Of a DNA stretch of 64,000 bases, positions 2,241 through 62,800 are shown in pieces. The notes under the pieces were generated by a model, which searched no databases, was not told the origin of the DNA, and saw only the letters and a program-made list of their open reading frames with translations. Both the position numbers and the translations under genes were made by a program. The DNA is taken from the NCBI GenBank assembly GCA_002633005.1, contig NMRA01000851.1:1-64000 (forward strand), written 5' to 3'. This DNA is from Phoronis australis (taxonomy: Eukaryota > Animalia > Phoronida). The first letter of the stretch is position 1; the number at the start of each line of letters is the position of its first letter.

Positions 2241-2344
2241 TCTGATTTCTGGTGTTTCACAATGATGACCGCCAATGTTAATTGACATTTGACTTCAAAA
2301 TTGGTGAATTGTCAAAAATGAACACAAATAAGGGAGTTTTATAA

Positions 2345-2530
2345 TATACGGAATGTTAGACCTCGTTCGGCTGCCATTGCCTCCGGTCAGCCTAGGCGTG
2401 AGCGTAACAGGAGATTGACCGGAGAGCCAGATGTTAATCGACCATGGCAACTGGCGTGAGCCTATGCGTGACTTTACCCGGAATTTAGCGTGAGTTGGGT
2501 CTGAACGAAGCGCCCGGCGTGAGCTCCTCT
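2345..2530. mobile_element. Fragment related to the subterminal region of the 52,733-54,124 element
   Basis: Cluster of GCGTGA(G)/CCGGA motifs after TTAGAC, with the same layout as 52,752-52,920. Confidence 0.5.
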
Positions 2531-2964
2531 CACATAGCTACAGTCGAGACAATCTCAACTGCTATCCTCACTTGTTTAGCACGACTAGAACAAGGTACTG
2601 TCTCGTATCTCGAGTGAAATTTCCGTAAGCTATATAATGTTTTTACTATATTGCCCTTATTGTTTGGCATCAGTCTTGTTGCACTAGAGATGCATTGTAC
2701 ATTGTGAATTATTTCTCATTTATTTTTTACTGGTCGATCAAAGGAACTCTTCAACAGAGAGGCACTACTGCCGCTACCAAGTATTAATAGTGTAAGTTTC
2801 TGAGTGCACTTGAGAGCTCGCTTTACTCTCTGGTACATGCCATGACCATGTGTCTTAAAAAGAATTTCATCGATACATCTTAAGAGATTTAATAGCCTTT
2901 AGTATACCTGTTACCAAGAAACAAGCCAAAGTTAAAAACATTTTTTTTCTGCTCTTGGTGTTGT

Positions 2965-13171: not shown

Positions 13172-14358
13172 AGGCGAAGGCAACCTTTTTTCATGTCATT
13201 TTGAGCTAAAATAAGGTTGGTTGGTTATCCTAGACATATTTTCCACTTAATTACAGCTTTTCGTAATTTTATTAATTACTCGTCCGCTTTTCCGGAAGTG
13301 ACGTTTTAGGAGGCANNNNNNNNNNNNNNNNNNNNNNNNNNNNNNNNNNNNNNNNNNNNNNNNNNNNNNNNNNNNNNNNNNNNNNNNNNNNNNNNNNNNN
13401 NNNNNNNNNNNNNNNNNNNNNNNNNNNNNNNNNNNNNNNNNNNNNNNNNNNNNNNNNNNNNNNNNNNNNNNNNNNNNNNNNNNNNNNNNNNNNNNNNNNN
13501 NNNNNNNNNNNNNNNNNNNNNNNNNNNNNNNNNNNNNNNNNNNNNNNNNNNNNNNNNNNNNNNNNNNNNNNNNNNNNNNNNNNNNNNNNNNNNNNNNNNN
13601 NNNNNNNNNNNNNNNNNNNNNNNNNNNNNNNNNNNNNNNNNNNNNNNNNNNNNNNNNNNNNNNNNNNNNNNNNNNNNNNNNNNNNNNNNNNNNNNNNNNN
13701 NNNGGTGACAGTAGATGAAGTGCCTCCACTGGCTCCAGTCACTGTACTGGCCACAGCTCGCGAGGCTTCTCGCTTCAAAAACGCACATCTCGGGGGTGGC
13801 GACGGGACAGTGCCGGGAATCAACACAGACGGAATGGCATCCTGCTTCAGGCGTTGTTTCGCAGGGACCTTCATCAGTTCAGCGTACAAATCCCTTTCGT
13901 AATCGGACGGCAGAAAGTGTTTGCCACACACACGGTAATTCTCGACGTTGCGTGGACGGGTAACGCTGCGTTCTTCACACGAACGAGCCAAGTACGGCGA
14001 AGTGTCATCCATCGGAAAGCGATGCAAAGGTACTCCCAAAGCGCGCGTGAGACGATAATTAGTACATCCCGGTACGCAGCAAAAGTGTGGCATGTTGACT
14101 GACTAGTAAATGAAAGCAAACGACGATGGAGCTTAACACAACCGAAGTAGAACATTGACTTAGTCGGCAGCTCTCACAGTCAGACTATATGAAAAGAAAT
14201 TGGCGCGAAATGCTTGCCTCCTAAAACGTCACTTCCGGAGTAGCGGACGAGTAATTAACAAAATTAGGAAAAGCTGTAATTAAGTGGAAAATATGTCTAG
14301 GATAACCAACCAACCTTATTTTAGCTCAAAATGACATGAAAAAAGGTTGCCTTCGCCT
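13172..14358. mobile_element. Kolobok element with both TIRs and TTAA TSDs; interior is a gap (13,316-13,703)
   Basis: TTAA|AGGCGAAGGCAACC ... GGTTGCCTTCGCCT|TTAA (TSDs 13,168-13,171 and 14,359-14,362). Confidence 0.9.
13704..14093 (-). pseudogene. THAP N-terminus of Kolobok transposase
   Basis: CCVPGCTN...RVCGKHF...RLKQDAIPSV. Compensating indels scramble the middle relative to the 5.7-kb copy. Runs into the gap. Confidence 0.8.
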
Positions 14359-20400: not shown

Positions 20401-20900
20401 GTGAATCCTCTCTTTGACGGAAAAAGTTCTCGAAAGGGACCACAGACATCAAACGTATTAATTATTCCCTTAAGAAATTTTGTAGCGTTTGGATTATTGC
20501 AAGATCTATAATTGCAAGTATCCAGTTCTTGACTGAGAAATAAATTAAAATCTCCACATACATGTAAAATAAACTTATCGGCATTCATTTCTTCAATTAT
20601 TGAAAATATATTACTATAAAAATTCGGATTATCAGTATTTGGACCGTACAAATTTACAAGGATGATCCTCTCTCCATCCATAATTAGTTCTATAATAACA
20701 TAATTTCCCGTAGGATCCTTTCTCACACTTTGAACAGTGAACTCAAAGTTATTATTAAATAGAATAGCTACTCCTCTTGAATTAGTCTTGTAAGAGCTGA
20801 AATGACAAGTATAACCCCACTGAGATTCAATGTACGGCTCCAAATCACAAGCAAAGTGAGTGTCTTGTAGACAATATATGCTAAATTTTGCGAACTCTTA
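17465..20900 (-). mobile_element. L1/Tx1-clade non-LTR retrotransposon ORF2, frameshifted; most of RT in gap 19,098-20,046
   Basis: APE motifs IYCLQDTH, SRGVAIL, NLYGPN, GDFN, FTW, ARLDFF, SDH and WKF. Post-RT FIW..K...EGG. C-terminal FKLLHRIL..N..L...CTFC...ETVDHIFFEC. AATAAA (17,486-17,491) and A-tail (17,465-17,472) on the minus strand. Confidence 0.9.
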
Positions 20901-25136: not shown

Positions 25137-28100
25137 CTGCAAGGTTATGCAGTAAGCTTAGATATAATTAGGCAGCTCTTTCAAAAGTTGCAAAACAGTT
25201 CCTTGAACGTTTGGATACTGTGATACCACCAATTATCGGCATTATGGAATGATGTACATGTAACAGCGTGTACAGCCCAGGTGGTTCGCTCTTTATCAGT
25301 GGCAGGAGGAGAAGCAGAGTGATAGGATCAAGTACATGTACATGTAGCATAGCGTTACACATTAATTATCAGAACGACGTAACACTAGAGCATTCCGATG
25401 ATTGGTTGGAGTCTCACGATAACACATTCCAATTGGCCAATGTTGAGATACATGCACGTGTAATGCATAGGTGCAGATAGGCCAGGGCTGCGGCTAATTT
25501 GCACGGTCAAGATATTAAAATCTAGGGGTAAGCCAGGCTTGGAGACAGTTTTTAGTTACGTGTTGCATATAGGCTTAGCGAAAGTGGATTATTTGTACAT
25601 GTAATTGTCAACATGTTGAGAATGAGAAAATACCACTTGCTTTTCTGCCGCTATGCTCTTCCTCAAGAAGGTGGCACCGTGTTACAGTTTACATTTGTGT
25701 CCTGCTGGTTAGCGACTGAGGAATTGCCTGCGATCTCAGGTAACCAAGCCAGTTTTGCAAAAAAACTTGTTACTTGATGGTACTTTTAGACCACATTTTA
25801 GAATCTGGAGGAAGTTTGCCTTCAGAATATAATCATGGCTTACTTCAAGCATCGGCAAGGAAGTGGGGGTGGGGGTGAAAAGTACCAATTTTGTGACTTT
25901 TTGCTCATTTTTTCTTTGCCTACTTTACTTTTCACTAGGAGTAAAAGGGTCAAAAATACAACACACGATAACTTCTTTGTCCTCATTTGTCAGGTTTTGA
26001 ATGTGGAAAGAGTCAAAACAAGTCATTATTTGCATAAGGTTTTCGAAAGAATGAAGAAAAAGTGACAAATCCAACGGTGCATGTTTTGCTAGGCGAAACC
26101 TAGTGAGAACTGTTTATTCTTGTTTTGGCTTGCTATTGCCGCTCACAACACGTCAGACACAATAGTCGTTTTTTACACATCCATGATTTCAAGGTAAGAA
26201 AACAATTCTCACTTTCCGACTTATTTCTGCACCATATGTAGGGTGCTACGACACAGAAATAACGCAAATAGGATCTTTTATAATAGACAAAACTGAAACA
26301 AAACGTGTTTTAACTGTCATTTTATTTTAAAACTTTACTTTGAATTGTAATTATAGAAGAAAATGAAAAAACCTCCGAGAAACACGATGTCGCACAAGCA
26401 GTTGCAATCAGTATCCCTGCTGCACACCCAAAAGGACAGGAGCATTGATTTGTACATGTACATGTACTGACAAACCTCAAAGAAAGACAACTGCGTTCGT
26501 TAACTGATGAAACTCATGCACGAGTTTTGTTTCTACGTACAGTTGGTGCTTCAATAATGTCTTCACGTAACCATGTAAAATCACGAGAGAATATTAGACA
26601 CATTTGGACGTAAGTACTCAATTACTTGTTCCAAATAACCAACAATCGAACCGCCCGAACAACTTTTTAACGGTCAAAACTATTGTCGATTTTGAATTTC
26701 GAATAATTATTATAAACAGCTTATTATTTAAAATGACTTATTCTTATTAAAATGACGTAAGCAAAAAATTGAATTTCGTACCTCAAAAGCGAGGACCCCT
26801 ATATTAATATAGGGGGCCTCGCTGAACGGAGGCCGGAGAGCGGGGCCTCCTATATTAATATAGGCGACCCCGCCGAAAGGAGGCCGGAGAGCGGGGCCCC
26901 CTATATTAATATAGGGGNNNNNNNNNNNNNNNNNNNNNNNNNNNNNNNNNNNNNNNNNNNNNNNNNNNNNNNNNNNNNNNNNNNNNNNNNNNNNNNNNNN
27001 NNNNNNNNNNNNNNNNNNNNNNNNNNNNNNNNNNNNNNNNNNNNNNNNNNNNNNNNNTTTCGAAAGAATGAAGAAAAAGTGACAAATCCAACGGTGCATG
27101 TTTTGCTAGGCGAAACCTAGTGAGAACTGTTTATTCTTGTTTTGGCTTGCTATTGCCGCTCACAACACGACAGACACAATAGTCGTTTTTTACACATCCA
27201 TGATTTCACGGTAAGAAAACAATTCTCACTTTCCGACTTATTTCTGCACCATATGTAGGGTGCTACGACACAGAAATAACGCAAATAGGATCTTTTATAA
27301 TAGACAAAACTGAAACAAAACGTGTTTTAACTGCCGTTTTATTTTAAAACTTTACTTTGAATTGTAATTATAGAAGAAAATGAAAAAAACTCTGAGAAAC
27401 ACGATGTCGCACAAGCAGTTGCAATCAGTATCCCTGCTGCACACCCAAAAGGACTGGAGCATTGATTTGTACATGTACATGTACTGACAAACCTCAAAGA
27501 AAGACAACTGCGTTCGTTAACTGATGAAACTCATGCACGAGTTTTGTTTCTACGTACAGTTGGTGCTTCAATAATGTCTTCACGTAACCATGTAAAATCA
27601 AGAGAGAATATTAGACACATTTGGACGTAAGTACTCAATTACTTGTTCCAAATAACCAACGATCGAACCGCCCGAACAACTTTTTAACGGTCAAAACTAT
27701 TGTCGATTTTGAATTTCGAATAATTATAGCGCTTTACCCAAAAATGGCAAACTAATTCTTGCCTACCTCAGTCAAACGCAAAAAATACATGTGCACTGAT
27801 GCGTCCTCAAACTTGTTTGAAAACGAAAACCAATGAATTCCATAATCAAAATCGCAAACCCTTGAAAATGCACTGCAGCATACATGTAGATTCCTTAAAA
27901 CACTACATTTACACTACACTTGTTCATGTATGAACTGGTGAAAACACAACTTAACGATCGTACACGTAATGCCAGATACTGGTGAGGACGGAAGCGACTT
28001 GAAAACGCAAAAATACATGCCCTGTTGGTCATATCAACGTACATGTATTTGTGTCACAGGAAAAACTTTTGAAAACGACACGATTGGGGTGCACGGTCTA

Positions 28101-31100
28101 CCTTTTAAAAACGCAACCAGACGTTGTTTAAAGGTAACAGACCACCCTACTACCAGTAGTTCACGACTGGTCGCCAACTCGTTTCGGACCGTTCGACCAA
28201 TGAATCGTGACCTGTACTGTAAATCAAGACTAAGCATAGATTAGTTCCAACGTCGTACCTTTTTAACAATGATCACGCTATAACGGATGATTGTCAGACT
28301 GTTACATACTTACCGATGGATGTCCCGTTTGGCAAGTTCGCGTCAGCTGAATACCACTCATCGACAGTATCATTTTCGCTGTAGTCTGAAAGAAATAAAA
28401 AACAGATTAGCACTGGACTACTGTACCTGTCTACATTGACCAAATCGAATATAATAAAAATGCCAAAATTAAAAACACATGTTATAGTTATAATAAGGTC
28501 AGCTTTAAATAACTAAGCATTTCAAAAACGTCACCTGGCTACGGATCAGTTCAATATTAATCGGCCACACACCGTCTGGTTGTCTTAGCTGTTGCGACCA
28601 AACGATGCGTCAGAATCCAGCGAGATGTTGACGACTACTTCTCGTTCTCCTAGCAATGAAAATATAACTACGTACAGAGCAAACGCAGTCCTTGGAACTG
28701 GATCGGTTTTCCCAGCACTCACCATTAACAACGACTTTCGCGTTTTGTCTGGTGTTGTCCTTGAGTGTTAATTCCTCCAAAGCCTCAGGGTCTGAATAAG
28801 AAGAACGTGTACTAACATCTCAGTACAACGCTAGGAGTTCAAATCGAGTACCAGTTGACAAGAATCTGTATGGGTCTGGTTATATACTGTACAGTTGCAC
28901 CTTGCAGTGAAAGAGCACATAGGTGCGTGAGCTATTCCAAACTATAAGTTCCTTCAAGGCGCTCACTTTTGGAGGAAAAACATTCATCGCACCGAATTAG
29001 TGGGAGGTCATACATATCAAGGAGGACAATGGACAAGTAATCGTCTTCCCCAGATCATAAGCACTCCGTTTAGTTTAGTTCAAGGATTTCATGTTTTGCT
29101 CACATGTACTTAGTGTCCTGTTGGTGTTGGATTTTAGTGATTTTATAACCTCCAGAGGAGTAAGTCATCGAGATCCGATATGGATCTTGTAATTGCTTGG
29201 GAATTGATTGATGTAGATGTACACCTTATCCCATACTAGAGTTCACCGAACCGGGTGATAACTTTTAAATCCGGTTTTAAGAAAATACCCGCGCAAGTCA
29301 CTTTGTGAACATTTTGATGAACTATATAAATAATATTCATTGAAAGAAAATAATTTATTCATCATTTGTTAGGTCTTATTGGCAGATTTCAATGTGTGTA
29401 CTATTCTTCTGTGCCCGGTTGCATGAAACAGTACCTAATTAGGGACTTAACCAAGTTCCCAAACTACGTAGTTAAGTCCGTATAAGGATTTTGTTTAAGG
29501 ACTGTTGCATAAAAAGGTCCCACACTCGGTCCTTATTGGGAATGCCCTATATCCGAAGTAGGTTCCCAAAGCCGTGGCTAAGGTCGCTTAATATGGCATA
29601 ATTATTGTCAACGAGAGAATACCTGCCGCATTTACGTCCTGTGTTCCACCATTTGAATGATTGTTTGAATAAAGTGCACACTCAGTGTGCATTATCTGAG
29701 AATTCCAGTTTTCAACTGCTGTTGAGAGAGCGGACGATGTATTGTGGCCGCCCACGCGAATGCAAATTAAAAACCAGTAAGGCGAACTGGTGAGAATACC
29801 ATAATCTCCGGTAGGAGTCGCCGCACTTCCCAACGCGCTGTTAAATTCGTCTGCCCTGCGTAATAAGTGAGACGTGGGGTAAGTCGTGGCACTATAGTAA
29901 TCGATAAATTCAGTTTACGATGGAAGTACTACATGTACTTCAGTGGGTGAGATCACGCATTTCCTGTTCGACAACTCTAGCTTCTTTCCAACGTTTCTAA
30001 CTATCATGAATATCCCAACCCTTGAACATCTAAATCTTGTTTAGCTCACTGCCGCTAAACGTCGCGATCGGATTTGTTATGTCACGAAAAATTCTTTTTT
30101 CAACAATATGAGCTTGATCGGCCATTTTATTGCTAGGAACTCAACTTAGAAACTTACTTTAGGTAACCCCAAAAGTTGAGTCTCTATTTAATGCCTAAAC
30201 TAACTGGGAACTTTTCATGCAACAGTCCCTAAAGACCAAAGGACATTCCTAACATTTTGGTACTGTCTCTTGCAACCGGGCACAGATCTTTTCCTGAGCA
30301 TACGATCTCATTTTGTCTGAAACGGACTATATAACCGCAAAGTAACGCTGTTCTTGAGAACAACTCTATGGCTTGCGAGAGTTGACGGCAGCCAGTAGGT
30401 TACATGCAATGGCATAAATGAGATAGCTTTGTACTTACATGTACCAACCTGTTCCCGTTTATCAGTCGCTGTAATGCAAGCATACAAATTAAATTCTCCA
30501 ACGTGAGACGAGAAGCGCTTCGATCCGTTAGAACATATCGTACCTCCAGTTAGTTTAGTGTATGCCGTAAGCACGTGATAACCCGTTACTTCGCCGAGGT
30601 TCTTTATCTCTCCGTTTAATTACCTAATGCTTGACCATGGATTTGGTTTGACAACGAATGGTCCTCATTCAAGGTCAAGTATTGGCAGATCATAACAATC
30701 AACACGCGCCTTACTTGATGGCAAAATTGGGAACCGGGCCAGGCTTCTAGCACATCTACATGTATACCTGACAATTGGCACACATCACACATGTGCTACT
30801 GTATAATGTATTCTCCGCGGTACCATTGGTGTGCAATATGCTTACACATTGAAAGAAGCTCCCATGTTGCAAGCTATTCAATCTCCTGTTTCATGTAGCA
30901 AACCGAAGTCACTTACAGTGTAGTTCTACGGGTTTTTGAACAGCAGGTCATCAATTGAAAGCAGGTGAATGTTTTACTATGAGACTGACTTTTTTAGTAA
31001 TAATGTAATCATAACCAAAAACTTATAGACCCCCTTCATTTTAGGCTAGGCCCGCGCATGAGACAAAATTCTGGTTATTTATGAGCCCTNNNNNNNNNNN

Positions 31101-37100: not shown

Positions 37101-40100
37101 AGGGTTAACAGATAATGAATTTAGCTTCGCTCAGTCGAAGAAACTCCACGTTACGGTAAAAGCCTGAAGCAGTTGAATTTTAAAAATCAAAATACAGAGC
37201 AAGCTTTACCGCTATCAAAATCGTTTAGTAAAATTGGAGAAACTGTAATGAAGCCAATGAAAGATCATTTTACTACCATTATAACATGCAAGAAAAATAA
37301 CGTTGTTTTGGATGTTTTTGTGTATATGTTCAATGTTTTGGAAAATTCACTCACTTGGCCACACTTCGACTTCACACAACGTCAAATTTGCGTTCCGCGG
37401 ATTCTGGGATTCGATTCGCACAGTTTTGCCAGTCAAAACGTTTGTGCAGGGGGTTTCTACAACACGTCCCTTTGGCACGCCAAGGCTGCTAAAGCAGAGA
37501 TTTTTTGTACCATCATCCCGTAACACGTATGCATTAATGGGAGGCACCGCTACATCTTAAAGTAAAATATAACATACATGTATAACACCGTTAGCGATGC
37601 ATCGTATTCTGGCTATTGCAAACAACAGTGAACTGTTGAGATCACGTCAGTGGCACGGGATTTGCAATCACACACATTTTGGTAAAGGCGACGAAAATGG
37701 TTGACACTGGTCTGCTAGGGTGCGGTCGGCAGAAGTATGGGGGGAGGCGGTCGGCAGAAGTATGGGGGGAGGCGGTCGGCAGAAGTATGGGGGGAGGCCA
37801 TATCAAAAAACACCTGTGAGCTTCCACTACACCTTAATTGTCAAGACAATTGCATTGCAAGCGAAGTTTAAAAAGCTTTCTTGTAATCAGCGGTGTTCCA
37901 TTGCGTGGTGGGTAATTACTAGGAAAACCTGATAAGAAAAATACAAAGACATATTGTGGCTTTAAAAGCCCGAATAGTCCTTTTGCGAATTTCTAACAAT
38001 AACGTAAAATTCTGTAAGACTAAGGTGTGTCGCTTCTGAAAACAAATCAGTTGTCCTTGCCAGTTGACCCGGCGGAACAGGTGAATATACCCACTGGCAA
38101 ACACGAAAAAACATGTGCGCTCTCTATTTCACCAAACCAAGCCATACCTCGACCGGGGAAGATACCCATTACAATATATTAAACAAACAAGTGCTCTCTA
38201 TTTCACGAAATCTAAACCATACCTCGACTGGACGAGATAGTTAGACTAGCTATTTTATATTCGCCCTCCAAATCCACTTCCCACCAAGTCTCGTTTATGC
38301 TCATTGCGTGCGCGCAAGAAAGGAACATCTCAACATGGTCTCGGCTGCCGTCTACGGCCAGTTTGGATTCTGGTGAAGTGTCGCCTGAAGACTGTCTTGT
38401 CGGTTTCCCTTGTGATATAGGTTTCGCTGCAAAAAACACAAGATCAAAATCATTAGTTTAAGCTCAGGAGTAGAAATTGGCGGGCAGTTCACAATTCCCA
38501 ACTGGGTTTTATGATGCACTGATTCAACTACATGTAATATTTAGCAAAAACTCGTCTAAACGATACTGCCATCAGTAATGCAGCAACACGAAACTACTCT
38601 TTTTCACCCGATTATGTATTCTTCGTGAATTCGTACCACTGAGGATTTCTCCTCAGTTGCTACCCTCGAAATTCTTGTTTCATTTTGGCACCACCATAAC
38701 CAAACTATTGAGAATGTCCCGTTTTCTATTTTTCCGCTGCTTCAGTTATCATTCTATTCCAACATGTTTGCATCCAGCTTCATGAAACAGTTCTAGTATA
38801 GAGAATGAACCTGTACTATGCAACTTGAATACACATGTAACTGCTAAAGCATGAAAACCTCACAACTCAACATATTCTCGCCAGCCTTCATGTACTTACG
38901 TGTACATCGAGGAATGTTGCAATAGTCCCAACGCCTCTGGCCGGATTCAGGCCCATAGAGGTAGCACCAGGGGCCACCAATGCTGCGATCGGCATTCCGG
39001 CAAAAATTGTAGTCTAGTTCTCTTAAATATACGTCTCTGGTGAAAGAACCTAACCCCGATAGTTTGTTCGGTGCCCAGTGCCACGGCTGACACAAGTGAT
39101 CGTTTTTAGATACGGATACTTTTCCTCTGAAGGCAGTTCCAAGGTCATCCTCTTTGCATGACTTGTTGGGAGATAAATCTACCGAGGCAGGCGCATTATA
39201 ATGCTGAGTGAACTACACTTAATAGAGTCATCATGCTGTAGCTCTGACAAGAGGAAGTCGGTAGATAAGATAATCCATTTCCTGCACTCCCTGTTGCCAA
39301 TGTGCACCAATTCGTGTGGAAATACCTACGTCGTTTATGCAGTTGAAATACTGCATTTTCAGTTGGTTATCAAATCAAACGTATGGAGAATTGCGAATTA
39401 ATTTAATTCTTTCTAATGATAATCATTAGTTTCCTCTCAGTTAAACAATATACATGTGTGTATGCAATTTTACTCTAATCACAGCAACACCAACGGCGTC
39501 GTTCATTTAACACCGGTTGGGTATTTCTTCCAGGTTGTGAGGTAGTTAAGTTTCTATCAGAAAAGAAATGCGACATGTAACGTGACAAAGAAATATATCA
39601 CGATATCATCATGCAGGCTACTCCAAAATACCCACGTGTTTGACAGTAGTCTGGAAATCGGTCGGTACCACTCACCTTGGCAGATCTTAGATGCCTGCTT
39701 CTTCCACGGGTGACAACTTTGACCTTTCAGACTGCCCTCTTTGCAATCCCGAGTTCTTGAACGGGTATGGGTCTCCTTGTCACACGGGCCCCAGGGCGTC
39801 CATTGCCCAAACTGTACTTCATATGTGTCTGAAATCATGAAAACGTGGACCCAGAAACTGCGCTAACACACACACTGAGTCCGCTAAACTTCCCATGGTT
39901 CTCACAGGTTATCGACTGCAAGTACCATCTCCGCCTTTTGGAAGTTGAAAATCGCGCGAAAATTCACGTTATCTTTCCTCTCAAATAAGTGGCAAAGGTA
40001 TTGTTTTTTATTAGTGAAGCTGAATCTTATGAATATTTGGGTTTATATGGGTTCACAAACTGTACATGTATGTACATGTATGTGTGACCACGTTTATTTA

Positions 40101-41887: not shown

Positions 41888-44800
41888 AGGGAGGGAGGGT
41901 GAGGAAGGGTGGAGTTATACATGGAATATTATAAAGATGGGGCAAGGGCTAGAGAGACAAATTTCATCGAACAGAGTTCATTGATCATCCGTGTGACATT
42001 TTTGGGCTTGCACAAAGGTCAGCGATGAATCGGCCAGGAGAGTTAAACTTCGAACTGAGTGTCGACTGCAAAGCATCAATTCAAATGGGGCTATTCGGAA
42101 AATCTGCAATAACTAGAGGGCATGCTTGTACTAGTGGTGATAGATTAACAGCCTCGACTTCGCGAGCCCTTTAAATACATGGTGAAATGGCTTGCAGCCG
42201 TGCAACTGAATCTGAGATTGCGTAAAAAGGGTGCTTCTAAGAGAGGAAGTAAGCACGACCTCATACAAAGGTAAGGTTTGTGATTATTTTAACAATTATT
42301 CCATGATTATTCTACCGATGCCTGTTAACTGAGGCACTCGCCGATGTCGACTTCGCGGCAGTCAGTCGCCAGCCATTGTCTGGTTAATCTTTGTATGTTG
42401 TGACATGTGATACGATACTTGATGTAGCAATCGGGATCTTTTCGTAGATCAAAGCATTATTATTGTTTGTAATGATTTCTTAAAGTTTATCAGTGACAGT
42501 TACACATCAATCAATGCTGAATGTTTATGCTGTCAACTCGATACAGGCTAATGAGTTAAGATTACAATCCAATCCCAATGGCAAAGGGTACGTGAGTGAT
42601 AAATATCCATTGCATTAGACTATTTGTTTACTCCCTATCATCTTCTTCTGGAAATCTATTACACGTTGAAATGGAAATCTATCACGTCAGTTTTCACGTA
42701 ACCTTTGGTTTTTAGGTTTGAAGGCTTCTACCGTGCAGAGGAGATATGCATCGCTTCTGCGCCGTCCCTGAATGGACAAAAATTGTTTTTTAGCATTTGA
42801 CTGCAGCTAACCAACAAGATCTTCCCATCCAGTGCAGATCTGTTGTCAAAGCCTACATGTACTTTCAATATTGGAGACAACGAACAAAGCCTTTGAAAAA
42901 GAACAGCTATTTTTAAAGTCATTTTGTTAAATTACTTATTCAGGCCCCAAGGGGGGATTGGCATAGGGGGTTGTAATATTTGGTACAACGTGTGGAAATA
43001 ACAGGTAATACATGTTCGGGAAAAGAGCATGGTGTGGTAATTCTTAACCTTCATGAAGTCCCTTCAAGTTGATTTCATGAAACTCTTTTGCTACTTGTAT
43101 CAATTGTAAAACCACGGAAATATATTACATTTTCTGAATTCACAGTGACTGAATAGTCTTAACTCATGCCTTGAAAGTCGTTATGAATTCAAAGGACTGC
43201 CATTTTTGTGAAATATCATTTTTGATGGTGCCTTAAGATTTGTAATTACTCTTAAACAACAGAAAGATTATCCATGACCCAAGTCTTTATATCGTCTATT
43301 AAGAGAAAAACGATTCCCTCAACCTTAGGCTAGAAGTATGCTTGACAGACCCATGAACCTGTAATCTGAGTTTAAAATTGCTGAAAGTATCAAAATTAAA
43401 AAGGCTTGAAAATGGGTAACAAAGGTTTGAAGTTGTCTCAAAAACTTGTATATTTTACAGACAAGTGATGCGTTTAAAGAATTGTTATGGCTAGGGATAA
43501 AAAATAAAGACACAGTTTTATGCAATACTCATTATATACACCCTTGGTTTCTGAAAATAGCAATTATTTACTTTTATGTAAAACTGTAGACCAATCACCA
43601 TATATTTTTGAAAAACAGGGATAACATTTTGATCCAATCTGGAGTACTTAATTATTCATATTTCAATATTTGTTCCAGGATCAGTGACATTTTAAGGCCA
43701 CTTCAAACTGTATCATAGACAAGCTTTGTTACTCCGTTCTCTTCCCACAGCACTTCCACAAACCAGCAGTGCTGCATGGCACAATATGCTAGTCAGTGGC
43801 CCTGGAGAAATGTGAATCGCAGTACTAAGTTACCATAAGACAATGTTCCAGTGGAGTGTCTGTGTATCCAGACGAACTATATCTGACTGCTACACAAATA
43901 AGCCTTGTTGGTGAGGATGCCCTTTCATAGACAATGAGTCATGTGTGGAAAATAGCTTATTTCCTTTCCTTGAAGAAACATGAGAGACTGAAGCTAAAGA
44001 AGACCTAGTCACACTCTGGTCTAGTTCAGAGTCTGATTTTGGGCTCAAAACGATTCAACTGATATGCTGCTGTGTTTACCTTCAATGGTCTAATTGTGGA
44101 TGTTATTGAGGCTTAATGAGGTTATATGAAAGAAAGCCACGTGTTGAAACTGGATCTTTTTTACAAGCACTTCTATAGGCCATTTAAACTAGAACCCAGT
44201 CAAATGAAAGCCAAAAGCTGAGTGACATTAAATTTTCCTTTCAGAAGAAAGGCTTTATACTATCGGTAAAAACTTTTCAATTTGGTACAGATTATGGGGA
44301 AATGACATTCAGTGACTGCATCAATTGTCTTATTGTATGTTTTCATTTGTAGCTAGAGTAGCTGGATAAGAATTTGCTATGCACAAAATTCGAGAATAAA
44401 CAATTATCAGTATATTTAAGAACGAATGGCAAACTGAAAAAGCACAGAAAGAAACAACATTGCGAGGGAGTCCATAATCAGGCATATCAGGTACTGAATT
44501 TCTGAAATACGCTCAATTTTCTCAGGTTATTGCTGAAGGATTGCTTTTCACTTTCTCCAACGGTGAAATAGATGGTCAGGCGGTTGGTTTCAGTTGTTTT
44601 TTCTTGCCTGTAACAGAATAGAAATATAAGCAAATTGTAAAAGAAAAGACAAGACAAAACTACTTTTGTAAGGCAGAACATACTTGACCTTTCATCTTCA
44701 TGCTTATGTGTAGAAACTAATAACCTTTGTACCCAAGTCTTATTTAATATCTGAATTAAAATAAGTGAAACAGGCTAAAAGTGATTTAACATTGTGTATT

Positions 44801-47800
44801 TTTCATGACACTTAAAATGTGCTTCTGATCTCAACAAGTAAAATTCATTCTAGGTGTCAATTTTTTTCCAATGCAATGTTACGACAGTTACTGAATTAAG
44901 GCTTATTCATGTTAATTCGATAACTGAGCTGGTGGTCCTGGGGGTGGGGTCCACGATAAAATAAGGAAACTCACTCATCTAGAGAATTTTATTGGAAACA
45001 GCATAGTTTTGAAGAGAAACTGCTGTGAAAAAGTCACTCTTGACTTCTGTGCATCACGTACTATACACCTCTTATCTTGGGAGCACTCCCACCCAGGACA
45101 ATATGAATATGTGCTGCTAGCCTATCCGGAATCAGGTGAGTTTCCAAAAAGAAACACTTAGTTCGACTCTATAAACCTGTTATTCAGTGGAGTAACTGGT
45201 GGGGATAACATCACCGAACGATGTTGATAGAAACTGATTGCTAAAAACTTACCAAGTAATGTTGTGTAGTCTCCGAATGGAAAAATTCCATCATTTACCA
45301 GTTGTTTACATGCAGACAGCCACGCATGCGCAATTCAATCACCACTAGTACAGCAGCGACACCGCGAGCAGAATTCTCCGAATAGCCCCATTGGCATTGC
45401 GTTTGGCTGCGTTGATTAAGGTGTTTCAAGGTTCTGGTTTAAAATCTCACGTTATCTCGAGGGGTTTGTGGACAAGTCTATGACTTCACTCAATTATCTA
45501 GAAGTGCACTGTACATAGTGCAAGGCTTATCCCTTGGAAAGGGACAGAGGACTCCACTTCCCCCCGTATAATCCAGCATTCTTAACGAGCGAAAGGTAGA
45601 AATGTCCGCCAACAACCAACCACGTCTCTAAGTAAGTGATCATTTTATATACTACTATGAAACGGACCTTGGATTCACAGGTATTCCTTCAGGTTAACGG
45701 GTCTCAGAAGTCGAAGAGCAGAGCGTCATTTTCATCCTTTAATTTGCAGCCTAATAAACTATAAACTCATGTTTAAGATAATGTACACACAGTACGCTTG
45801 TACATCCAAGATCAACACTTTGGTCAACTTCGCAATATCACATCGCATAAGTAATATATGATCCATGAGAATCTTTCAGATACCCTACCTTATAAATTGT
45901 TCTCTAGAACGCTGTTTTAAAAGATTGCACTTTTCAATAAAGACCTACTGTATCTGTACACAGGACTGGCATGATTTGTCTAAGCAGGTTGAAATTAGTC
46001 AAAATCACGACAATATTTTAAAAATTGCAATAGCGTTTCTGAAACAGTACGTTGATTAGTCTTGGGTCAGGAAGTTAGTTATGTACTTGACCGTGTTAGT
46101 TTGCTAGGAATGTAACGTTCGATCTGTTTGTATTTTAAGTATCGTTACGTGAGCATCTTATTGTTATACTGGTTTACTGAAAACACTGACATTTTACCCA
46201 AAATCTGCTGGCAAAAAATCGTGCTTTTGCTATAGTTTGTACAAACTTTTCGATATACTGTAATCCTGCATAACATTGATCTCGCTGGCACATGAATATC
46301 CCAATTAATCTTTACATAATCATCCATTTTTGAAGTTGCATGACTTTCCTTTGGGAAGGGGCCGTTTATCAAGACCAACGCAAATTAAATTTTTAGTCTT
46401 TTTGTAATATCTAAAACGAACCAATTTAAAACTGCTCTCCACATCGCAGGTTATAACTATGTGCAAATAACAGAGAAAAAAAATTTGGGTGTAATAACAG
46501 CCACCATTGTTTAAGAAACTAATGCTAACTATTACTTTTCCACTTCATTAGCTAAGGGACCCGTTCCAACAAAACTGACTTAGCTAAGACAAATCTTAAA
46601 TTTTAGTAAATTTTAAAATAAAAGTTAAGTTCATTTCAAAACCAATTCAAGAAAGAGATCTTAAGTTGACTTAAGTGTTTAACAGAAGTTTTGTCTTAAT
46701 TTTGTCAAACTTACCGAATGTGGAAGTTTCAAAGTTTAGAAGTTAAGACAATTCTTAAACTTAAGTCAAAAATGAACTTAAGTCAGTTTCTTGGAACAGG
46801 CCCCAGATCTACATCAATACAAAGGGCGTGCTGAATAGGCCAACGGAATCAGAGCGGTGACCATTGTAAGCTAGAAATTTTCAACATGAAAAAACATACG
46901 ACCTCCAGGAGCCTTCCGACAACTACAGGGATAGAATTGGGAATTTCTCATCTTGTTATCATAATCAACCTCAGTGGTGTGATTTAAAGTTGTAGGATCA
47001 GGAAAATGCTTATCCAATATGACTCTGGGGAATTCACTAGATGAAGTAGTGCATGTCCATCAACGCGTAGGATTGTCTCCAAATGAACAGTCTGATCTTC
47101 CCTCAGGACCTGAACAAGATAGACTTGACCATTCCTGCCACGAGCTCCGATTTGTGACACAGACTGTCAATTCATTTCACTATCTGCACGTAAGGCAATC
47201 CTATGAGATTTCCTTGTAATCCGGAAGAGAAGTGAGCTCTTTGGTCCATGAAATCTGGCGATTAGTTTTTCTCCTGAGACTTATTACTCTTGTATTGTGA
47301 GCAACATTACGGACTCTAGTCAACGAATCTGGGACAGTATCACATAGCTTGTGAACTGATTTCAGCACGTGTGCGGAAATCCTGTCAATCATTTTTAATG
47401 ATTTTGCTATACACAGTGTATAGGGTACGGCGAACATGTAAATTAACACCTTGAATCCAATATACCCGTAACATAAAAAGATACATGTAGGACTGTGAAT
47501 CTACTATCCAACACCTAACCGCATCAACTGCAAGTATATTCACTAAATTCAGGTTAAAGATCTCGTGGCGATTCATAAAAACAAAAGCACTTTCATTTTG
47601 TCTGTTGCAAATGGTCAGTTTATTAGCGACATTTATTTTTTACACGGATACATCTCTACAATTGGAAACAGAACTATTGATCACCTCATGGAGAACAATG
47701 GCATCACACCTTATCATTAAAGGACTCTGACATTTACTGCATAGTTGTGGAACACTGTATCAATTGGAGGTTCTTCAACTGGTTCCTTGTCATATCTGCT

Positions 47801-50800: not shown

Positions 50801-53800
50801 AGTCCGTTTAAGCGCGTGCTTATTCAGTGTTTGCTAACAGAAAGCTGTTTTGGAACAATTACTCGATTTTGTATGCTATGGTCACATGTTAGGGGAATTT
50901 TTATTTAGAAATACAAATACAGTATTCAACTCATTGTTTCTGCACAACCTTTGCTCTGACGGTCTGTGGAAGGGGAAACCGTTTTCGCCGCCCCCGAAAA
51001 GTAAGTAGATTTTCAGTTTCGTGGCTAATTCACATAAATAATTACGTGCAAATTATTTCTTTGGATCATTTCAAATGAGAATATGTTTATACATGTAGTC
51101 TTTTCGTGACTGCAGGTTTTGTTTCCAACTCAAGGTGGTTTATGTTCGTGCCAGTCTCGGCGTTCGCGACGGGCCTGATCGAGTTCCGAGCCATCGGTCA
51201 GGATAACAAGCGATTTGCGTGTTCAGAACTCAAAAAATCGCAACTCTAAACAACACAGATCTAGGTTCTCCTATCTGTATTTCACGGAAAAATACTTTGA
51301 ATTTATCTCCGAACATACCTCAAACTTCTGCTACGGACCTTGGTAAAATGGCATGCAGATCTTTGTAGGCTACGGTGTGTCCAAAGACCAATAAATCCGT
51401 AACAGCGAAATAAAACAACACGTTTGTATAAGAACTCGGTGTACTTTTAAGGGATTTACATCGAAATTTGATGCTTTATTGGTGATAAACGATGATTTCA
51501 AGCGGTAAGCTGACACCAATAACCAGTGTTGTGAACTCCTGAACAGACTGCGTGTGAAACCAATTGGAAAATTTCAACACCTCGTCTGCCGTCAGGTGTC
51601 AGGTGACGCAACCGAACGTGCCGTTGTCGAGTAGAACTACTCGATCTAAATTGATACAAAATAGGTTGTTTTTTGGTGGCATTCTCCTTTAAGTGACGGG
51701 CGGTGGGCTGCAGACTGGGTATGTAGGTAGTTCGTGCTCTCATCATGTAGCATCCTTATGATATCGGAAAAAAGAGTTCAGGTGCCTGTACTGTACACAA
51801 TGCAGATCGCTGGTTCGTGTCTTTGCGAGTCGGTCTACATTTTCGTTGCTGTTAATACCTACATGGACCCTCACCCAGTGTTCATTGACGTTTGTTACAA
51901 CTGCAAGTTTGTTAATCTCATTAGCGCAAGCATTAGACAAGACACTTGGTTTCTGCAGGGGTTTTACTGCAACTTTGGTAATTGAAAACATGGTAATGGA
52001 CCGGTTGACCACCTTTTCATTGTACTCGCGTGACATAAACAATGATACTTCCAAGCAGCTCAAAACAAGCAATCGCATCTATTTATATGTTACAAAGCAT
52101 AATTAATACATGACTGCATAATGGGGCTCTTCGGAAAATCTACAATAACTATAGGGTGCGCGTGTACTAGTGGTGATAGATTAATAGCCTCGATTTCGCG
52201 AGCCCTTTAAATACATGGTGAAATGGCTTACAGCCGTTCCAACTGAATCTGAGATTGCGTAAAAAAGGGGCTTCTACATGTATGAGAGGAAGTAAGCACG
52301 ACCTTATACAAAGGTAAGGTTTGTGATTATTTTANAAATGCTTACAGCCGGACAAAATGTTGTGATATCCTAGATCCGCCACTGCAATCAATGCTGATTG
52401 TTTATGCTGTCAGCTCGATACAGGTTAATGAGTTAAGATTACAATCCAAGCCCAATGATAAAGCGCGGTACATGACAAATATCCATTGCGTTAGACTATT
52501 TGTTTACTCACTATCATATGTCTTCTGGAAATCTATTACACGATGAAATGGAAATCTATCACGTCTGTTTTCACGTAACCTTTGGTTTTTAGGTTTGCGG
52601 GCTTGTACCGTGCAGAGGAGACATACATCGCTTCTGTACCATCCCTGAATGGACAAAAATTGGTTTTTAGCATTTGACTGCAGCTAACCAGCAAGATCTT
52701 CCCATCCAGTGCAGATATTTTGTCAAAGCCTACAGTACAGCCAGTGAATTATTAGACTCTCTCCGGTGTCTCTCCGGTCTAGCCACCCGTGACCGTAACC
52801 GGAGACAGACCGGAGAGTGAGACGTGAATCAACCGTGACAGCTGGAATGAGCCTAACCCGGATTTTACCGTGAGTTAGGCGTGAACAAAGCGCGAGCCAG
52901 CCGTGAGCCAGGCGTGAGTTTACCTACATCGCAGATGAAAAAGTAATTTATCAAAATTATATCAGAAACTAGCAGTTATGTGTGTGTTCTCATACACTTT
53001 TGCTCATGTGAGGTTTATTTTTTTGAAATCGTCACGTTCAGCAAAAGACCAAAATTTTCTTCTCAAATCTTAAGTCACTTCAGGAAACAGACCTGTGGAC
53101 TATACTTTTCACTTATATATAATTATTTGTTTTTATATAAACTAATAAAGAATCTTAACACGCGTGTACATGGCGAACTTATTCAATTGCCTCCACGATA
53201 TAAAGGAGCATAGCATGTCAATTCTCAGCACATTGATACCAAGTTCCGGCTTCAAGCGGAGAAAACTGATCGTGCCCATGCATTTGACCAGTCAAACAGA
53301 TCACTGCTATTATTATTTTAGTGAAGAAGTACCCCGGAGATACTGTGAACTCAGTCGAAACGCATGTACTACGTGGATGGGGTTACAAATACACTGTAAT
53401 TTAACTGCACTACGGATTGAGGACTTTTTAGTCAAAACATTTGCTTGCAGGAAGGGATGGGTATGTCAGAGTGGCGGCCTATTGAATTTTTGTGTACCCC
53501 AGTGCGGTGAAAAAATTTACGAAGTGACACAATACTTCAAAAGATGCATAGGCTATTTTTAGGGCAAATTAACTATACCAACACGTGACAAGTTTATAGG
53601 AGTCCACAGCCATGTAAAGACGACTCTGGACACAGGGTTGCGTATATTCGTATTTACTAATCGTGGTTATTGTACATGTATGTCGTTGATGGGACTGGCT
53701 CTTAAGTCGTAAATAGAAAATGTACATGTAACCGTAACACAAGATGAGCTGCAGGAAGACGTTTGTATGAACAACACGTGGAATTACAAAGTGTAACCCA

Positions 53801-56800
53801 AGTGTAATAGGTGAATGCTTGCAAAGATACTATATAATATACTATAATGTCTTTGCAACTTGTCCGAAACGACAGGCAATCAAGACGTTACAGGTATTTT
53901 TATTGATTAGACCGGTGCCCTACCATGGTTACCACAGGTACCGAAGGCGTGAAGAAAGCCTGAGGAAAGCGTGAACTAAACCAGAGGCAAGCGTGAGGAC
54001 TACCCGGAGATTGGGCGTGAGGTGACCGTGACTGATTTCTGTCACGCCTGCGTTCCGGCTCGGCTCCGCTCTGGCCAGGCGTGAGGTAGTCCGGACGAAG
54101 TCTAAAAATTCAGTGGCTGTACTGTACTTTCAATATTGGAGGCAACGAACAATACCTTTGAAAAGGAACAGCTATTTTTAAAGAAAGGTATGTAAGTCAT
54201 TTTGTTAATTTACTTATTCAGGTCCTTAGCGGGGGATTGGCATGTGGGGTTGAGGTTGTAATATTTGGTACAACTGCATGTGTGGAAATAACAGGTAATA
54301 CATGTTTGGGGCAAAGAGCATGGTGAGGCAATTCTTAACCTTCATGAAGTCCCTTCAAGTTGATATCTTGAAACTGTTTTGCTACTTGTATCAGTTGTAA
54401 ACCAATGAAAATATATTTACATTTTCTGAATTCACAGTGATTGAATAGTCTTAACTCATGCTTTGAAATGTTGCAAGTCGTTATACATTCAAATGTCTGA
54501 AATTTTTATGAAAATTGCATTTTTGATGATGCTTTACGATTTGTAATTACTCTTAAACAACAAAAAGATTAGTCATTTTTAAATTACCCAAGTCTTCATA
54601 TCTTCTATTAGGAGAAAAATTAAAAGTCTGAGAAACGGTCCCCTCAACCTTAGACTAGAAGTATTCTTGACAGACCCATGAACCTGTAATCGGAGTTTGA
54701 AATTGCTGAAAGTATCAAATTTAAAAAGGCTTCAAGTGATATGCTGCTGTGTTTACCTCCAAGTGTCTAATTGTGGATGTTATTGAGGCTGAATGAGGTT
54801 ACATCAAAAAAGACACATATCGAAATTGGAACTTCTTTACAAGCGCTTCTATAGGCCATTGAAACTAGATCCCAGTGAAATGAAAGCCAAAAACTGAGTG
54901 ACATTAAATTTTCCTTTCAGAGGAAAGGCTTTATACTATTGGTAAAAAATTTCAATTTGGTACACATTGTGGGGAAATGACATTCAGTGACTTCATCGAT
55001 TGTCTTATTGTATGTTTTCAGTTGTAGCTAGCTGGCTAAGAATCTGCTATGCACAAGATTCGAGAATAAAGAATAATCAGTGTACTTAAAAACAAATGGC
55101 AAACTGAAACAGCACAGAAAGAAACAACATTGCAACGGAGTCTATAATCAGGCATATCAAGTGCTAATTTCTGAATTACGTTCAATTCTCTCAGGTTATT
55201 GCTGAAGGATTGCTTTTCACTTTTTCCAAAGGTAAAATAGGTGGCCGGGCGGTTGGTTTCAGTTGTTTTCTCTCACCTGTAACAGAATAGTCGGAGAAAT
55301 ATTAGCATATTGTAAAGGAAAAGACAAGACAAAACTACTTTTGTAAGGCAGAACATACTGGACGTTTCATCTTCATGTTTATGTGTAGAAACTAATAACC
55401 TTTTTACCCAAGTCTCATTTAACATCTGGATTAAAATATGTGAAATAGACTAAAAGTGATTTAACAATGTGTATTTTTCATGACACTTAAAATGTGCTTC
55501 TGCTCTCAACAAGTAAAATTCATTCTAGGTGTCATTTTTTCCAACGCAATGTTACGACATTTACTGAATTAAGGCTTATTCATGTTAATTCGATAACTGA
55601 GCTGGTGGTCCTGGGGGTGGGGTCCGCGATAAAATAAGGAAACTCACTCATCTAGAGAATTTTAATGGAAACAGCATAGTTCTGAAGAGAAACTGCTGTG
55701 AAAAAGTCACTCTTGACTCCTGTGCATCACGTACCATACACCTCCTATTTTGGGAACACTCCCACCCAGGACAATATGAATATGTGCTGCTAGACTACCC
55801 GGCATCGGGTGAGTTCCCTAATAGAAACACTTAGTTGCACTCAATAAATATGTTATTCAGTGGAGTAACTGGTGGGGATAACATCACCGAACGATGTTGA
55901 TAGAAACTTGATTGCTAAAAACTTACCAAGTAAAGTTGTGTACATGTAGTCTCCGAATGGAACTGCATACAGTAGTCATAGAGCAAACACGGGGCTTCAG
56001 CATCCACACACTTTTTGTCAGTTACTTGACTCTTTTGACCGCAATTGTCCACGGATATAGTAACTTTAGGTCTTTTGGGAATTTTGGTCACCTGTCGAAG
56101 ACTTGCACCAAAGAAAATAGAAGTAATAAGGCTAAGGGCGACGACGTATTTTGATAAGAATTCATCTTTTATCAGTTGTTTACATGCAGACAGCCATGCA
56201 TGCGCAATTTAATCACAACTAGTACAGCAGCGACACCGCGAGGAGAATTCTCCAAATAGCCCCATTTAGCAAAATGATTCTTGCAAATCTACAGCAAAAC
56301 ACTCACTTGGGTGGTCAGCCGCAAACGCTACTTCATAATGTTCGTCCCTGCAGTTACGCTGTCGTTTGAACTTCACCCTGTCCCTGTACAATTTATGGAC
56401 ACAATAGCATGTTTTGTCTCCTCTGTGGAAAACAGCGTACAGCCGTTTATAACCTGCTCCAACTTTGCATTCCAGGGCGCATTCGGCGAGTGTCGATGTT
56501 CCAGGTCGCTTTTTCCATCTCTGGCCAGGTAACGTTAACGTGTAACAACCTAAAGCTGCCAATTTATTACTCGATATAGAGTGAAACTCACTGTCAGTAA
56601 CGGACCTGCACACAGCAGAGGGTCATGTTTCATAGACTATACTTTCTATGGACTATAGACAAACTAACTCGCTGAAAACAAACAAACTCGCAGTCGTTTT
56701 CAAGATCTGAAAACAAACCATTTACCTTGTTTACGAATCGCTTCTAAGGCCAGTTCCAAATAATTTATCAAAGAAGTTGTGCATGTAGGGATTGTTATAA

Positions 56801-59800: not shown

Positions 59801-62800
59801 AATACATAGCAGTAGCGTTCAGAGTTTTCTTACAACTCACTTTCTATTCAAATGCCTGCATCCTAGTTCTAGGAAAAGTAAAAAAAATGAAACATATTTA
59901 ATTTAACTGCAAATCAGTCACAATTTCAAAAACGTTATATATATGTATTCATTGGATGGCCCCTCATGTGAATGGCCCGGGCCGTCGTCCCGTCACCCCC
60001 TGTCCTTCCGCAATCTACTGGTTGCAAGTAATAATCTTTCGCGGAATACAGCGGACAAGCTTGTAGTTGAATGCATTAGGAACTCCCTTGGTGTCGACGT
60101 TGCCAACTGCCCAGGCCAAAGATATTTATAAATCTGAATCAAATGCACGTGTAATGTAAGTGATGAACAGAATGGCGTTCAGGCACTCCTGCACGCTTAT
60201 GTTTAAAGAATACGAATCTGTAGACCCTCTTCTCATGTGCGCCTTACTCGTTGTGCTGGGGCAAGCCACGAAGCATACATCTTCATGGGAGCAGGTTTGA
60301 GTGGAGTCTCACTGAAACTGACGCGTGCTGCGTTTCCCACTTTCCCTTATGTATTGATAACTTAATGAGACTTTGCCTGCACAAGGTTGCTTCCGAAAAA
60401 GTACAGGGTCAACGTCAATTTTTCGAAATGTCATCAAGAGGTCTACTGTTTTAGAAACGCGTGCCACCTTTGCGTAACCCTGACTACTGGACTGCATTTC
60501 TCCAAGTCAAGTGGGTATTTTGCTCTTTCATTTATTGCTTCTATTTAATCCGACTTCTTGATATAATTTTGGATGAAAAAACGAAAGAAACAAGACAATT
60601 CGTTATTTAGTATTTTCTCGGCTATCTTCCTAGTAGAAAGAACATAACCTTGTCTTGAAACATTACGCTCTATTTACCGGAGAAACAAATTAAACGGTGC
60701 ACAGAAAATTAGCCATATCAGACAAAATTTCTCAAAAACAAAATGCAGGGAACGTGTGAAACAGATTTTCTCTAGTTGGGGTCGTTTCATAATCTGAAGC
60801 CCAGCTCATGCACCCCGTATAGCTCACGTGGTTTTGAAATCAAACACATGGTAGCATTGTGTTTTGACAAGAAAAGTTTCCAAATGCGGAATTCAGACTG
60901 ACGATTTTGGTTTTGTATCCAGCGCAAGGTTAACTTTCAGACAATTTACCTAATTCAAGTATGTTTATTGACTAACGAGCAATTTTAGTTATTTTGTTGT
61001 GAAAAACACGACTAGGGGATCGCCTGCATTCCACCGTACATTAAAGGAGAGGCAACATTTTCCACATGATTTAGCAAAAATAAGGTTCATTCATTATCCC
61101 AGACATAAGTTTCACGTAATTACAGTTTTTCACAACTAATTTTATAATTCGTCCTCTATTCCGGAAGGACCTCGCTAAAAAGCAAGACTTCGCGAGATTA
61201 AGTGAGATATTGCCGTGTATTTTAAATGAAAACACGTGACTTTGACTAGGTTTTAGCTACTGTATGTCCTAGCGTAGGTCCTAGCGTCTACTGAACGCAC
61301 GCAACGCCTGCTAGACACCGAATGAAGAGGACAGTTTGTCGTGCAATGAACAGATCGGTGAGCCAAACATTGATAAATTTATTGAGGACTTCTCTAAAGT
61401 ATTGGAGCTATTTAGAAGGTCCCAGGTGGGTAGCGAGGGAGTCACACAGCGGAATGTAAGCAGTTTGTGTGCTCAGGTAATCATCCAGTGGGGGAGTATT
61501 GCGGGACACTAGGGCAAGTGGGACAGTTGTTCCTCTATCTGTGAGACGACAATGAGTACATCCCAGCACGCAGCAACTGTGTGGCAAGTTGACTGACTTG
61601 TAAACAAAATGAAACGACGACCGAACTTATCACAACCGGCAGCTCTCACAATTGGTCTTCATGAAAAGAAATTGGCGCGAAATTCTTGCCTCCCTAATCG
61701 CCACTTCCGGAGTAGCAAACGAGTAATTGTATCAATGACAAAACGCTGTAATTACCTGAAAAATATGTCTGGGATAATCAACGAACCTTATTTTGGTAAA
61801 ATGTCATTTAAACTGTTGCCTTCGCCTTTAAGTGACAGTGGCTATATTTAGTTGGTGGCCACGGGCGGTGCAGGCTACGATTCAAACAAATATTCACACC
61901 AACTGATACCCAAAAAAACTCTTTCAGAAATTTTATGTGTGTATTCTGAGGCACGTTTGTCACTCTGTACACATACGCTTGATCGTTGCATATATTCTTT
62001 GCGCCAAAATCCCGGGCTTCACGAAACAAGGTTAAAAGATCTTTGAAATAAAGAACTTGCCACATAATTTATATCATTTTGTTGCGTACCCTGAGTAATC
62101 TACAAGTACGATACAAAGATTCAGCACTTATTTAAATGTTTCTAAAATTGGGGTCATCATTCATCAGATTTAGTCCCCAAAATATAAGAAGGTCAATTTT
62201 ACTCAAACCATGATTTTCCAAACCTAACGAACATTTGAATTATTAATCATTCCTTATGTAAAAAATAGTGAAACGAAATGTTCCCAAAAGTTGCCATTTC
62301 ATGCAGTCACTATTAAGGCTATGCAGGGTCATGGAAAATGTTCACTTGGAACATTATATCTCAAAAGCGGCTGAACAATTTTATGCAAAATTATTCTAGA
62401 CACTGCTAGGCATTGTACGTTCTGTTCTTACATGTACATGAGGGGTGTCAAAATTCTTTTATGATTTTAATTAAAAAATCTTGCACTGCATTAAACGTAA
62501 ACGAAACGATAATTTAGAAAAAAATATCGTGCTACTGAGTCTGTTATTTTGCTGTCAGTGTAACTTTCCTTTTTCGCAATATTATGCAAAAAGTCACGAT
62601 TGCCTGACCATATTGATGACAGTTTGGTAAAGACTCGGCAATCAAACTCAATCAGTGCCAAGATTTTTCCTCAGACGGTTGAGCGACCCGAATCTTACTC
62701 ACTACGTCAGGAAGGATCAGCCTTCGGTCTGGCACCAACAGTCGATGTTTTGAGACCGATTACTCAGGGTAGTACATTTATCATATGCTCAAATTCGTTG

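Follow-up and report, generated by a model that had tools for sequence, protein, structure and literature searches.

The first 64,000 nt of Phoronis australis contig NMRA01000851.1 (the whole stretch analysed, hereafter the window) hold a 1,392-bp non-coding element, inserted at a TA in one copy of an ISL2EU-like host repeat; a second host copy about 10 kb away carries the 8-letter word TACATGTA at the homologous TA. We consider it probable that this is a CAG…CTG-ended, TA-duplicating element, likely pogo-like, that was moved by an enzyme encoded elsewhere, and that the TACATGTA of copy 1 is the likely scar of a separate CA…TG-ended insertion into the same TA. The first-pass annotation of this DNA had described a filled junction, TA-[1,392 bp]-TA, in copy 2 and TACATGTA in copy 1, and the sequence reads that way; it had further read the two as a single insertion before and after excision, which would name the scar maker, and the comparisons below do not support that pairing. 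The features concerned are as follows (strand given where one was assigned).

2347..2525, plus strand: fragment related to the left end of the element, sharing its phased motifs but starting differently (TACGG…)
42087..45389: host repeat copy 1, AT-flanked, with GGGG…CCCC ends, ISL2EU-like
42854..42861: TACATGTA in host copy 1, at the TA homologous to the filled site, six of its letters absent from most family reads
52123..56263: host repeat copy 2, which carries the element; AT-flanked, lying in DNA unrelated to that around copy 1
52275..52282: TACATGTA in host copy 2, the paralogous position in copy 1 being TA
52731..52732: left copy of the TA target duplication, a single TA in empty host copies
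52733..54124: non-autonomous DNA transposon with terminal inverted repeats (TIRs), 1,392 bp, CAG…CTG ends, without recognisable coding sequence
52733..52758, plus strand: left TIR, 26 bp
52762..52917: left subterminal array, 13 CG[TC]GA/CCGGA motifs in 11-bp phase and mixed orientation
53390..53398: TA-CA-CTG-TA within the element, a 7-bp addition at TA
53673..53730: two more TACATGTA words within the element (at 53673 and 53723), not polarised by reads
53948..54095: right subterminal array, 11 motif matches spaced mostly 11-12 or 22 bp apart
54099..54124, minus strand: right TIR, 26 bp
54125..54126: right copy of the TA target duplication, placed by the junction and the empty-site joint
55941..55948: TACATGTA in host copy 2, again opposite a TA in copy 1

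Copy 2 reads CAAAGCC-TA(52731-2)-CAGTACAGCC…GGCTGTACTG(52733-54124)-TA(54125-6)-CTTTCAATATTGG across its junctions, and copy 1 reads CAAAGCC-TACATGTA(42854-61)-CTTTCAATATTGG. The host repeat is 3.3-4.1 kb long and has the form AT-GGGG…CCCC-AT at both copies; AT duplication and ends that start with a purine, which we take to be ISL2EU traits, fit the two of them. Open reading frames (ORFs) of copy 1 gave no Pfam match among the 2 scanned of 20 short ORFs listed.

The 1,392-bp element is beyond chance. Its two 26-bp TIRs are identical at 24 positions, and an 18-nt end pattern with up to three mismatches matched the window only twice, at the two element ends, where 0.10 matches were expected. CG[TC]GA/CCGGA motifs number 13 in the ~200 bp at the left and 11 at the right, compared with 0.75 per 200 bp window-wide, and most are 11 or 22 bp apart; for the left array the autocorrelation peaks at 11, 22 and 33 bp. 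The TIRs and motif arrays were thus rightly called in the first-pass annotation; from their sequence, the arrays are putative transposase-binding sites. The longest ORF of the element (137 aa, 53149-53562) had no match in Pfam, in two homologue searches, in a search of 1.84 billion proteins or in an atlas. An interior segment (53137-53334) is 72% alike to 12131-12321, has the highest read depth within the element and matches no protein; the similarity of the ORF to 12131-12321 shifts frame.

A related fragment, earlier placed at 2345-2530, shares the array organization: 2381-2513 aligns to the left array of the element with 74% identity over 134 columns and holds 8 CG[TC]GA/CCGGA motifs. Its relatedness is borne out to this extent, but it starts differently, and no partner end was found for it within the 64-kb window. 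The element's own end can be read as CAG-TA-CAG-C-CAG, as if ends had been added stepwise. Termini lying further in (CAGCC…GGCTG or TACAGCC…GGCTGTA) were considered and set aside, as they require two symmetric earlier events or leave no duplication.

We further compared the site with reads of the host family. Five public runs (X1 to X5) matched the stretch, X1 to X4 holding only 15-20% of its words, and none of the contigs listed extends across it. A joint between 52730 and 54125, which skips the element and one TA, occurs in 549 raw reads of X5 with ~214 starts, and the same joint is present in contigs of X1, X2 and X4. Reads of somatic excision would look the same as those of the many empty host copies. 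At position 42854 of copy 1, the six extra letters are missing from 2,392 of 3,019 reads. Plain TA is therefore the state of the host family, from which it follows that the TA duplication is real and that an insertion without duplication into an ancestral TACATGTA is rejected. The duplication and the termini thus stay where the first-pass annotation had put them, and the host-family state that it had proposed to survey is, in these reads, usually plain TA and not TACATGTA. Whole TACATGTA words at the copy-1 site amount to at most 195 of 2,780 reads (7%) by subtraction of the gaps listed, an estimate that falls to ~60 reads (2%) if those showing other partial gaps are also subtracted. Read depth in X5, used here as a relative measure, is 58-463 over the element versus ~440-3,600 over the host repeat (~1,900-3,600 adjoining the site). 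A contig holding a third host copy of ~85% identity spans the site without a gap (its letters are not shown), and another contig carries TACATGTA at the next TA.

If one filled ancestor had given rise to both host copies, shared derived changes would be expected. None of the 7 private variants among the best-supported ones listed is common to copies 1 and 2: at five host sites where copy 2 is unlike >90% of reads, copy 1 agrees with the majority, and at two sites where copy 1 is unlike ~90% of reads, copy 2 does so. The copies also differ at a 13-bp indel that segregates in the family (664/2,191 reads), at indels of 1, 6 and 1 bp (554/1,291, 253/1,182 and 290/587 reads) and at a base variant of 22% frequency. 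Because private variants are not shared and segregating indels differ, copies 1 and 2 are likely not sisters and, judged from these markers, their ancestor probably had plain TA. The scar and the insert are each present in at most ~7% of reads, so both lineages are mostly plain TA. The pair is thus not a before-and-after view of one insertion, and the copy-1 TACATGTA is likely the excision footprint of a separate one. Gene conversion between the copies was also considered and rejected: the nearest differences between them lie 12 bp to the left and 16 bp to the right of the site, which leaves no room for a conversion tract, and identities in 50-column windows range from 0.82 to 0.96 with no peak there.

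It is unlikely that the scar was left by this element or its direct ancestor after residence at the copy-1 site, whether in a filled ancestor common to both host copies or before a 10-kb hop from copy 1 to the matching TA of copy 2. The two events share one TA and matching terminal CA/TG letters in copies only 10 kb apart, the footprint state is rare in the family, and local hopping has been described for Sleeping Beauty (PMC2874221; the papers cited here and below by PMC number are represented by excerpts). Against common descent stand the absence of shared private variants and the different family-level markers. A local hop would have had to choose one TA among one to three thousand nearby, which by a rough estimate is far below the background rate of scars, and recurrent additions at the site are hinted at by the third-copy contig of ~85% identity, which shows no gap across it. 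As to the background, 58 scar clusters fall on 4,311 TA sites (1.3%), and 9 on the 306 sites in the CTAC context of this site (2.9%), a rate close to the read-based estimate at the site. TACATGTA at a given paralogous TA is accordingly not far beyond chance here. The simplest account, and a likely one, is that scar and insert are independent events on one TA. The pair fits the element family as scar maker without identifying the maker, since agreement over two or three end letters is too little to tell one family from another. The looser first-pass wording, under which the scars come from this family or a relative, may hold. More generally, where scars are this dense (1-3% of TA sites), comparing filled and scarred states between paralogous repeats can mislead.

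The scar word is not confined to this site. TACATGTA is the most frequent 8-mer of the window, with 64 copies against 1.84 expected under an order-3 model of the window with TACATGTA collapsed, and scars reach a density of ~1 per kb. Of 11 TACATGTA clusters in comparisons of diverged sequences, 8 (7 in paralogue pairs, plus the read test at 42854) correspond to a clean gap of 6 or 12 bp at TA; among the other three, one falls within a gap of 16 bp and two, in a pair of 78% identity, are ambiguous. Within tandem duplicates of 97-99% identity, all 4 clusters are common to both units, one with a substitution. Indel lengths peak at 6 bp (14 indels, whereas 3 have 5 bp and 4 have 7 bp), and the letters added at TACATGTA gaps are not templated by the flanks. 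This bears out the earlier description of TACATGTA as both TAs plus two letters of each end, that is, a 6-bp addition at TA left by CA…TG makers. Each scar keeps two TA sites and can be struck again, as in the 6 TACATGTACATGTA of the window. One-mismatch neighbours of TACATGTA (60 versus 39 expected) suggest a mean decay of a few percent.

That TACATGTA might instead be a protein-binding site under selection, or have arisen by point mutation or slippage, so that the copy-1 word would have nothing to do with transposition, is highly improbable. The word is abundant upstream of oomycete genes, where the excerpted source reads it as a transcription-factor site, and Irx proteins prefer it (PMC3520976); a fixed 6-bp addition that the flanks do not template, located in decaying repeats and derived at 42854, speaks against such a role here.

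Other words at TA carry information on the ends of the scar makers. Three-letter scars (TACAGTA/TACTGTA) occur 29 times versus 11.8 expected, and the 2+3 words TACACTGTA/TACAGTGTA 4 times versus 0.9, and TACATA/TATGTA show no excess (38 versus 41.6). The TACACTGTA word at 53390, inside the element, lacks 7 of its letters in 174 of 332 reads; it is therefore a derived 2+3 addition, likely the 2+3-nt footprint of a CAG…CTG-ended element. Together with the word excesses, this read-polarised TA-CA-CTG-TA points to makers ending CAG…CTG; the scar makers thus have CA…TG ends, which are probably CAG…CTG.

Minos leaves a footprint made of the four terminal letters of either end, and the scars could in principle come in this manner from an unrelated CATG…CATG-ended family, the CAG-ended element being a bystander. 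This would account for one dominant word without enrichment of TACATA/TATGTA, and the asymmetric pair TAGGCTTA/TAAGCCTA, in excess and once found as a 6-bp gap at TA, resembles a four-letter scar from one end. We nevertheless regard it as quite unlikely, as a scan of end pairs found no TA-flanked CATG-ended element in the window, the 3-nt and 2+3-nt words, one of them polarised by reads, point to CAG…CTG ends, and Tc1 itself, according to the excerpted account, typically leaves a +4 scar in the soma (PMC13148408).

Several further regularities accompany the scars. At +1, C is preferred 1.56-fold and A is depleted (0.5-fold), and the scar rate by context runs from 2.9% at CTAC down to 0.25% at ATAA, with 0 of 131 at CTAG. 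TAGGCTTA/TAAGCCTA occur 8 times versus 1.25 expected (~6 independent; at 3381, 9934, 10855, 16413, 20263, 25570, 36866 and 58468); the one at 10855 is a 6-bp gap at TA relative to its paralogue, and the pair is possibly a second, asymmetric footprint word. TATACTGTA/TACAGTATA, a three-letter scar adjoining a doubled TA, occur 7 times versus 0.75 (at 14835, 17536, 28883, 35767, 46254, 58719 and 63155).

How an excision could write TACATGTA is suggested by Tc1 and Tc3, whose transposases cut the non-transferred strand 2 nt inside each end, so that the host ends keep a 3' CA. For the separate CA…TG-ended insertion that we favour at copy 1, a Tc1/pogo-type transposase would make cuts staggered by 2 nt, sometimes 3 nt, at each end and leave each host end with a 3' CA overhang; end joining with fill-in across the break would then keep both overhangs and yield TA-CA-TG-TA, with TA-CAG-TA and TA-CA-CTG-TA as minor products. 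Excision would have to take place in the germ line often enough for ~1 scar per kb, and since scars are inherited through duplications, we infer that end joining operates in the germ line. The first-pass statement that host repair favours one outcome agrees with the counts (64 copies versus 29 three-letter scars, no excess of TACATA/TATGTA); its appeal to a repair route may be correct and is kept here as conjecture. The element family is one plausible scar maker, and there are probably several.

On sequence grounds, we use pogo-like as a working label for the element. The empty site has one TA and the filled site two, as for IS630-Tc1-mariner elements, which duplicate TA on insertion. Pogo-like elements are described as having a TA target and TIRs under 30 bp (PMC9976928), pogo_NA starts CAGTA (PMC3845634), and a pogo-like transposase binds subterminal motifs (PMC1636448), as far as the excerpts go; the element has short TIRs (26 bp, 24 identical) that start CAGTA. 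As excerpted, the Repbase rule for non-autonomous elements allows no more than one mismatch to a classified member over the first 11 letters (PMC4455052).

A number of points weigh against this account. The element matches pogo_NA at 7 of the first 11 letters, pogo_NA being the sole TIR compared, and its arrays of 11-13 phased motifs are longer than in the pogo-like example. Long subterminal arrays recall CACTA and hAT elements. No transposase partner was found in end-pattern scans of metagenomes and viruses or in protein searches. The metagenome scan gave two uninformative matches (L001 and L002) and the viral scan none: L001 is a contig of 35% GC with the 20-nt end pattern, TA included, at 514-533 and no further similarity to the element, and L002 was rejected as a partner, being a chance match in bacterial-looking coding DNA. 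The element-family data are compatible with termini further in, and termini and flanks of the family at other insertion sites lie outside the read variants listed. That two events fell on one TA, in copies 10 kb apart, is a coincidence of 1 in 15 to 1 in 75. No more than two samples supplied the reads, the raw ones coming from a single Hi-C library of which ~4% was read; only 42854 and 53390 are polarised by reads, gain rather than loss being presumed for the other gaps. Finally, the test of sister copies uses 7 sites from the best-supported variants, with 871 and 86 weaker ones outside it.

The site provides a direct picture of three states (plain TA, filled and TACATGTA) and a concrete candidate family for the abundant word. 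If the scars are germ-line footprints, the commonest 8-mer of the window is a record of past transposon movement, and breaks of this kind are mended by end joining in this germ line, in contrast to that of the worm. A broader proposal, which we put forward as rather unlikely, is that an undescribed lineage of TA-targeting transposases, represented in short form by the element family, is a main author of TACATGTA fields in marine animal genomes, with near-deterministic germ-line end joining keeping both overhangs. Were this true, the genome would preserve a fossil record in which cut-and-paste events could be counted by the hundreds of thousands, along with the places where germ-line chromatin was open. 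Within the top-ranked literature, subscription papers and supplements lying outside that search, no study of TACATGTA footprint fields across animal genomes was found.

Other features of the window, which looks animal-like from its Kringle exon and LINE relics, include a Kringle-domain exon, relics of a long interspersed nuclear element (LINE) endonuclease and of zf-RVT, and a weak RNase H match (38847-39212, 20340-20897, 17915-18292 and 51746-52078, in this order, all on the minus strand). An 880-bp inverted-repeat element with two nested inverted pairs lies at 29408-30286, and an inverted-repeat family with ~170-bp arms occurs in several places (1163-1337, 5831-6003, 13166-14366 and 61036-61835). 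At 26788-26917, a nested palindromic repeat of CCTATATTAATATAGG units adjoins an assembly gap; the two 670-bp copies on either side of the gap are 99% identical and may have been duplicated in assembly.

Neither part of the site is new in kind: the element is a non-autonomous one that targets TA, and the footprint is of the Tc1 type. What is striking is how densely the scars lie. The window adds a resident candidate family, a three-state site tested with reads and a polarised 2+3 scar, not an identification of the maker. Within the excerpts that describe them, pogo_NA, Emigrant/Lemi1 and Passer share with the element a TA target, short TIRs, a CAGTA start and repeated subterminal motifs, and leave footprints of 0-4 bp. 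The element differs from this group in matching 7 of the first 11 letters of pogo_NA, in its 11-13 motifs in 11-bp phase and in its length of 1.4 kb.

Members of the CACTA/Transib/RAG clan cut by forming hairpins on the flanks, and long phased subterminal arrays like those of the element are typical of CACTA elements. Were the element a clan member of the ESTA type, its own end letters would not be left behind and it would not be the scar maker. ESTA elements (EnSpm-like, CMCT clade) do resemble it in their TA duplications and CA…TG ends, the latter being given by the excerpted source for most of the clan (PMC12730594). A RAG1-like transposase with C(2)C and H(3-4)H motifs is a further mark of ESTA/CMCT elements; no coding partner of the element was found. 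The ESTA starts listed there are CAC and fungal in 23 of 23 cases (30 of 88 places covered, some skipped), whereas the element starts CAG and resides in an animal-like genome, which makes such membership very doubtful. The same excerpts give IS3EU TAYGG…CCRTA ends and a 6-bp duplication (PMC12730594). The start of the related fragment (2347-2361), TACGG, resembles that end, yet its inner end and arrays are common with the CAG-ended element. IS3EU membership was rejected for the element, as the inner TACAGCC…GGCTGTA pair lacks a 6-bp direct repeat and only the fragment starts TACGG.

The closest parallel for the scars is the somatic footprint of Tc1 in C. elegans, which, as excerpted, is the same +4 word with the same geometry: TA, two terminal letters per end and TA, in our window derived from plain TA. 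The word is given as taCATGta and is rare in the worm (PMC3520976). The +4 scar is the typical somatic footprint of Tc1 (78%) and requires non-homologous end joining, while the worm germ line repairs by homology (PMC13148408). The resemblance extends to the form of the scar and not to its descent from the insertion seen at the filled site, the host copies not being sisters. Whereas the Tc1 footprint is mainly somatic in the worm, the scars of the window are common to duplicated segments at ~1 per kb and thus appear heritable and far denser.

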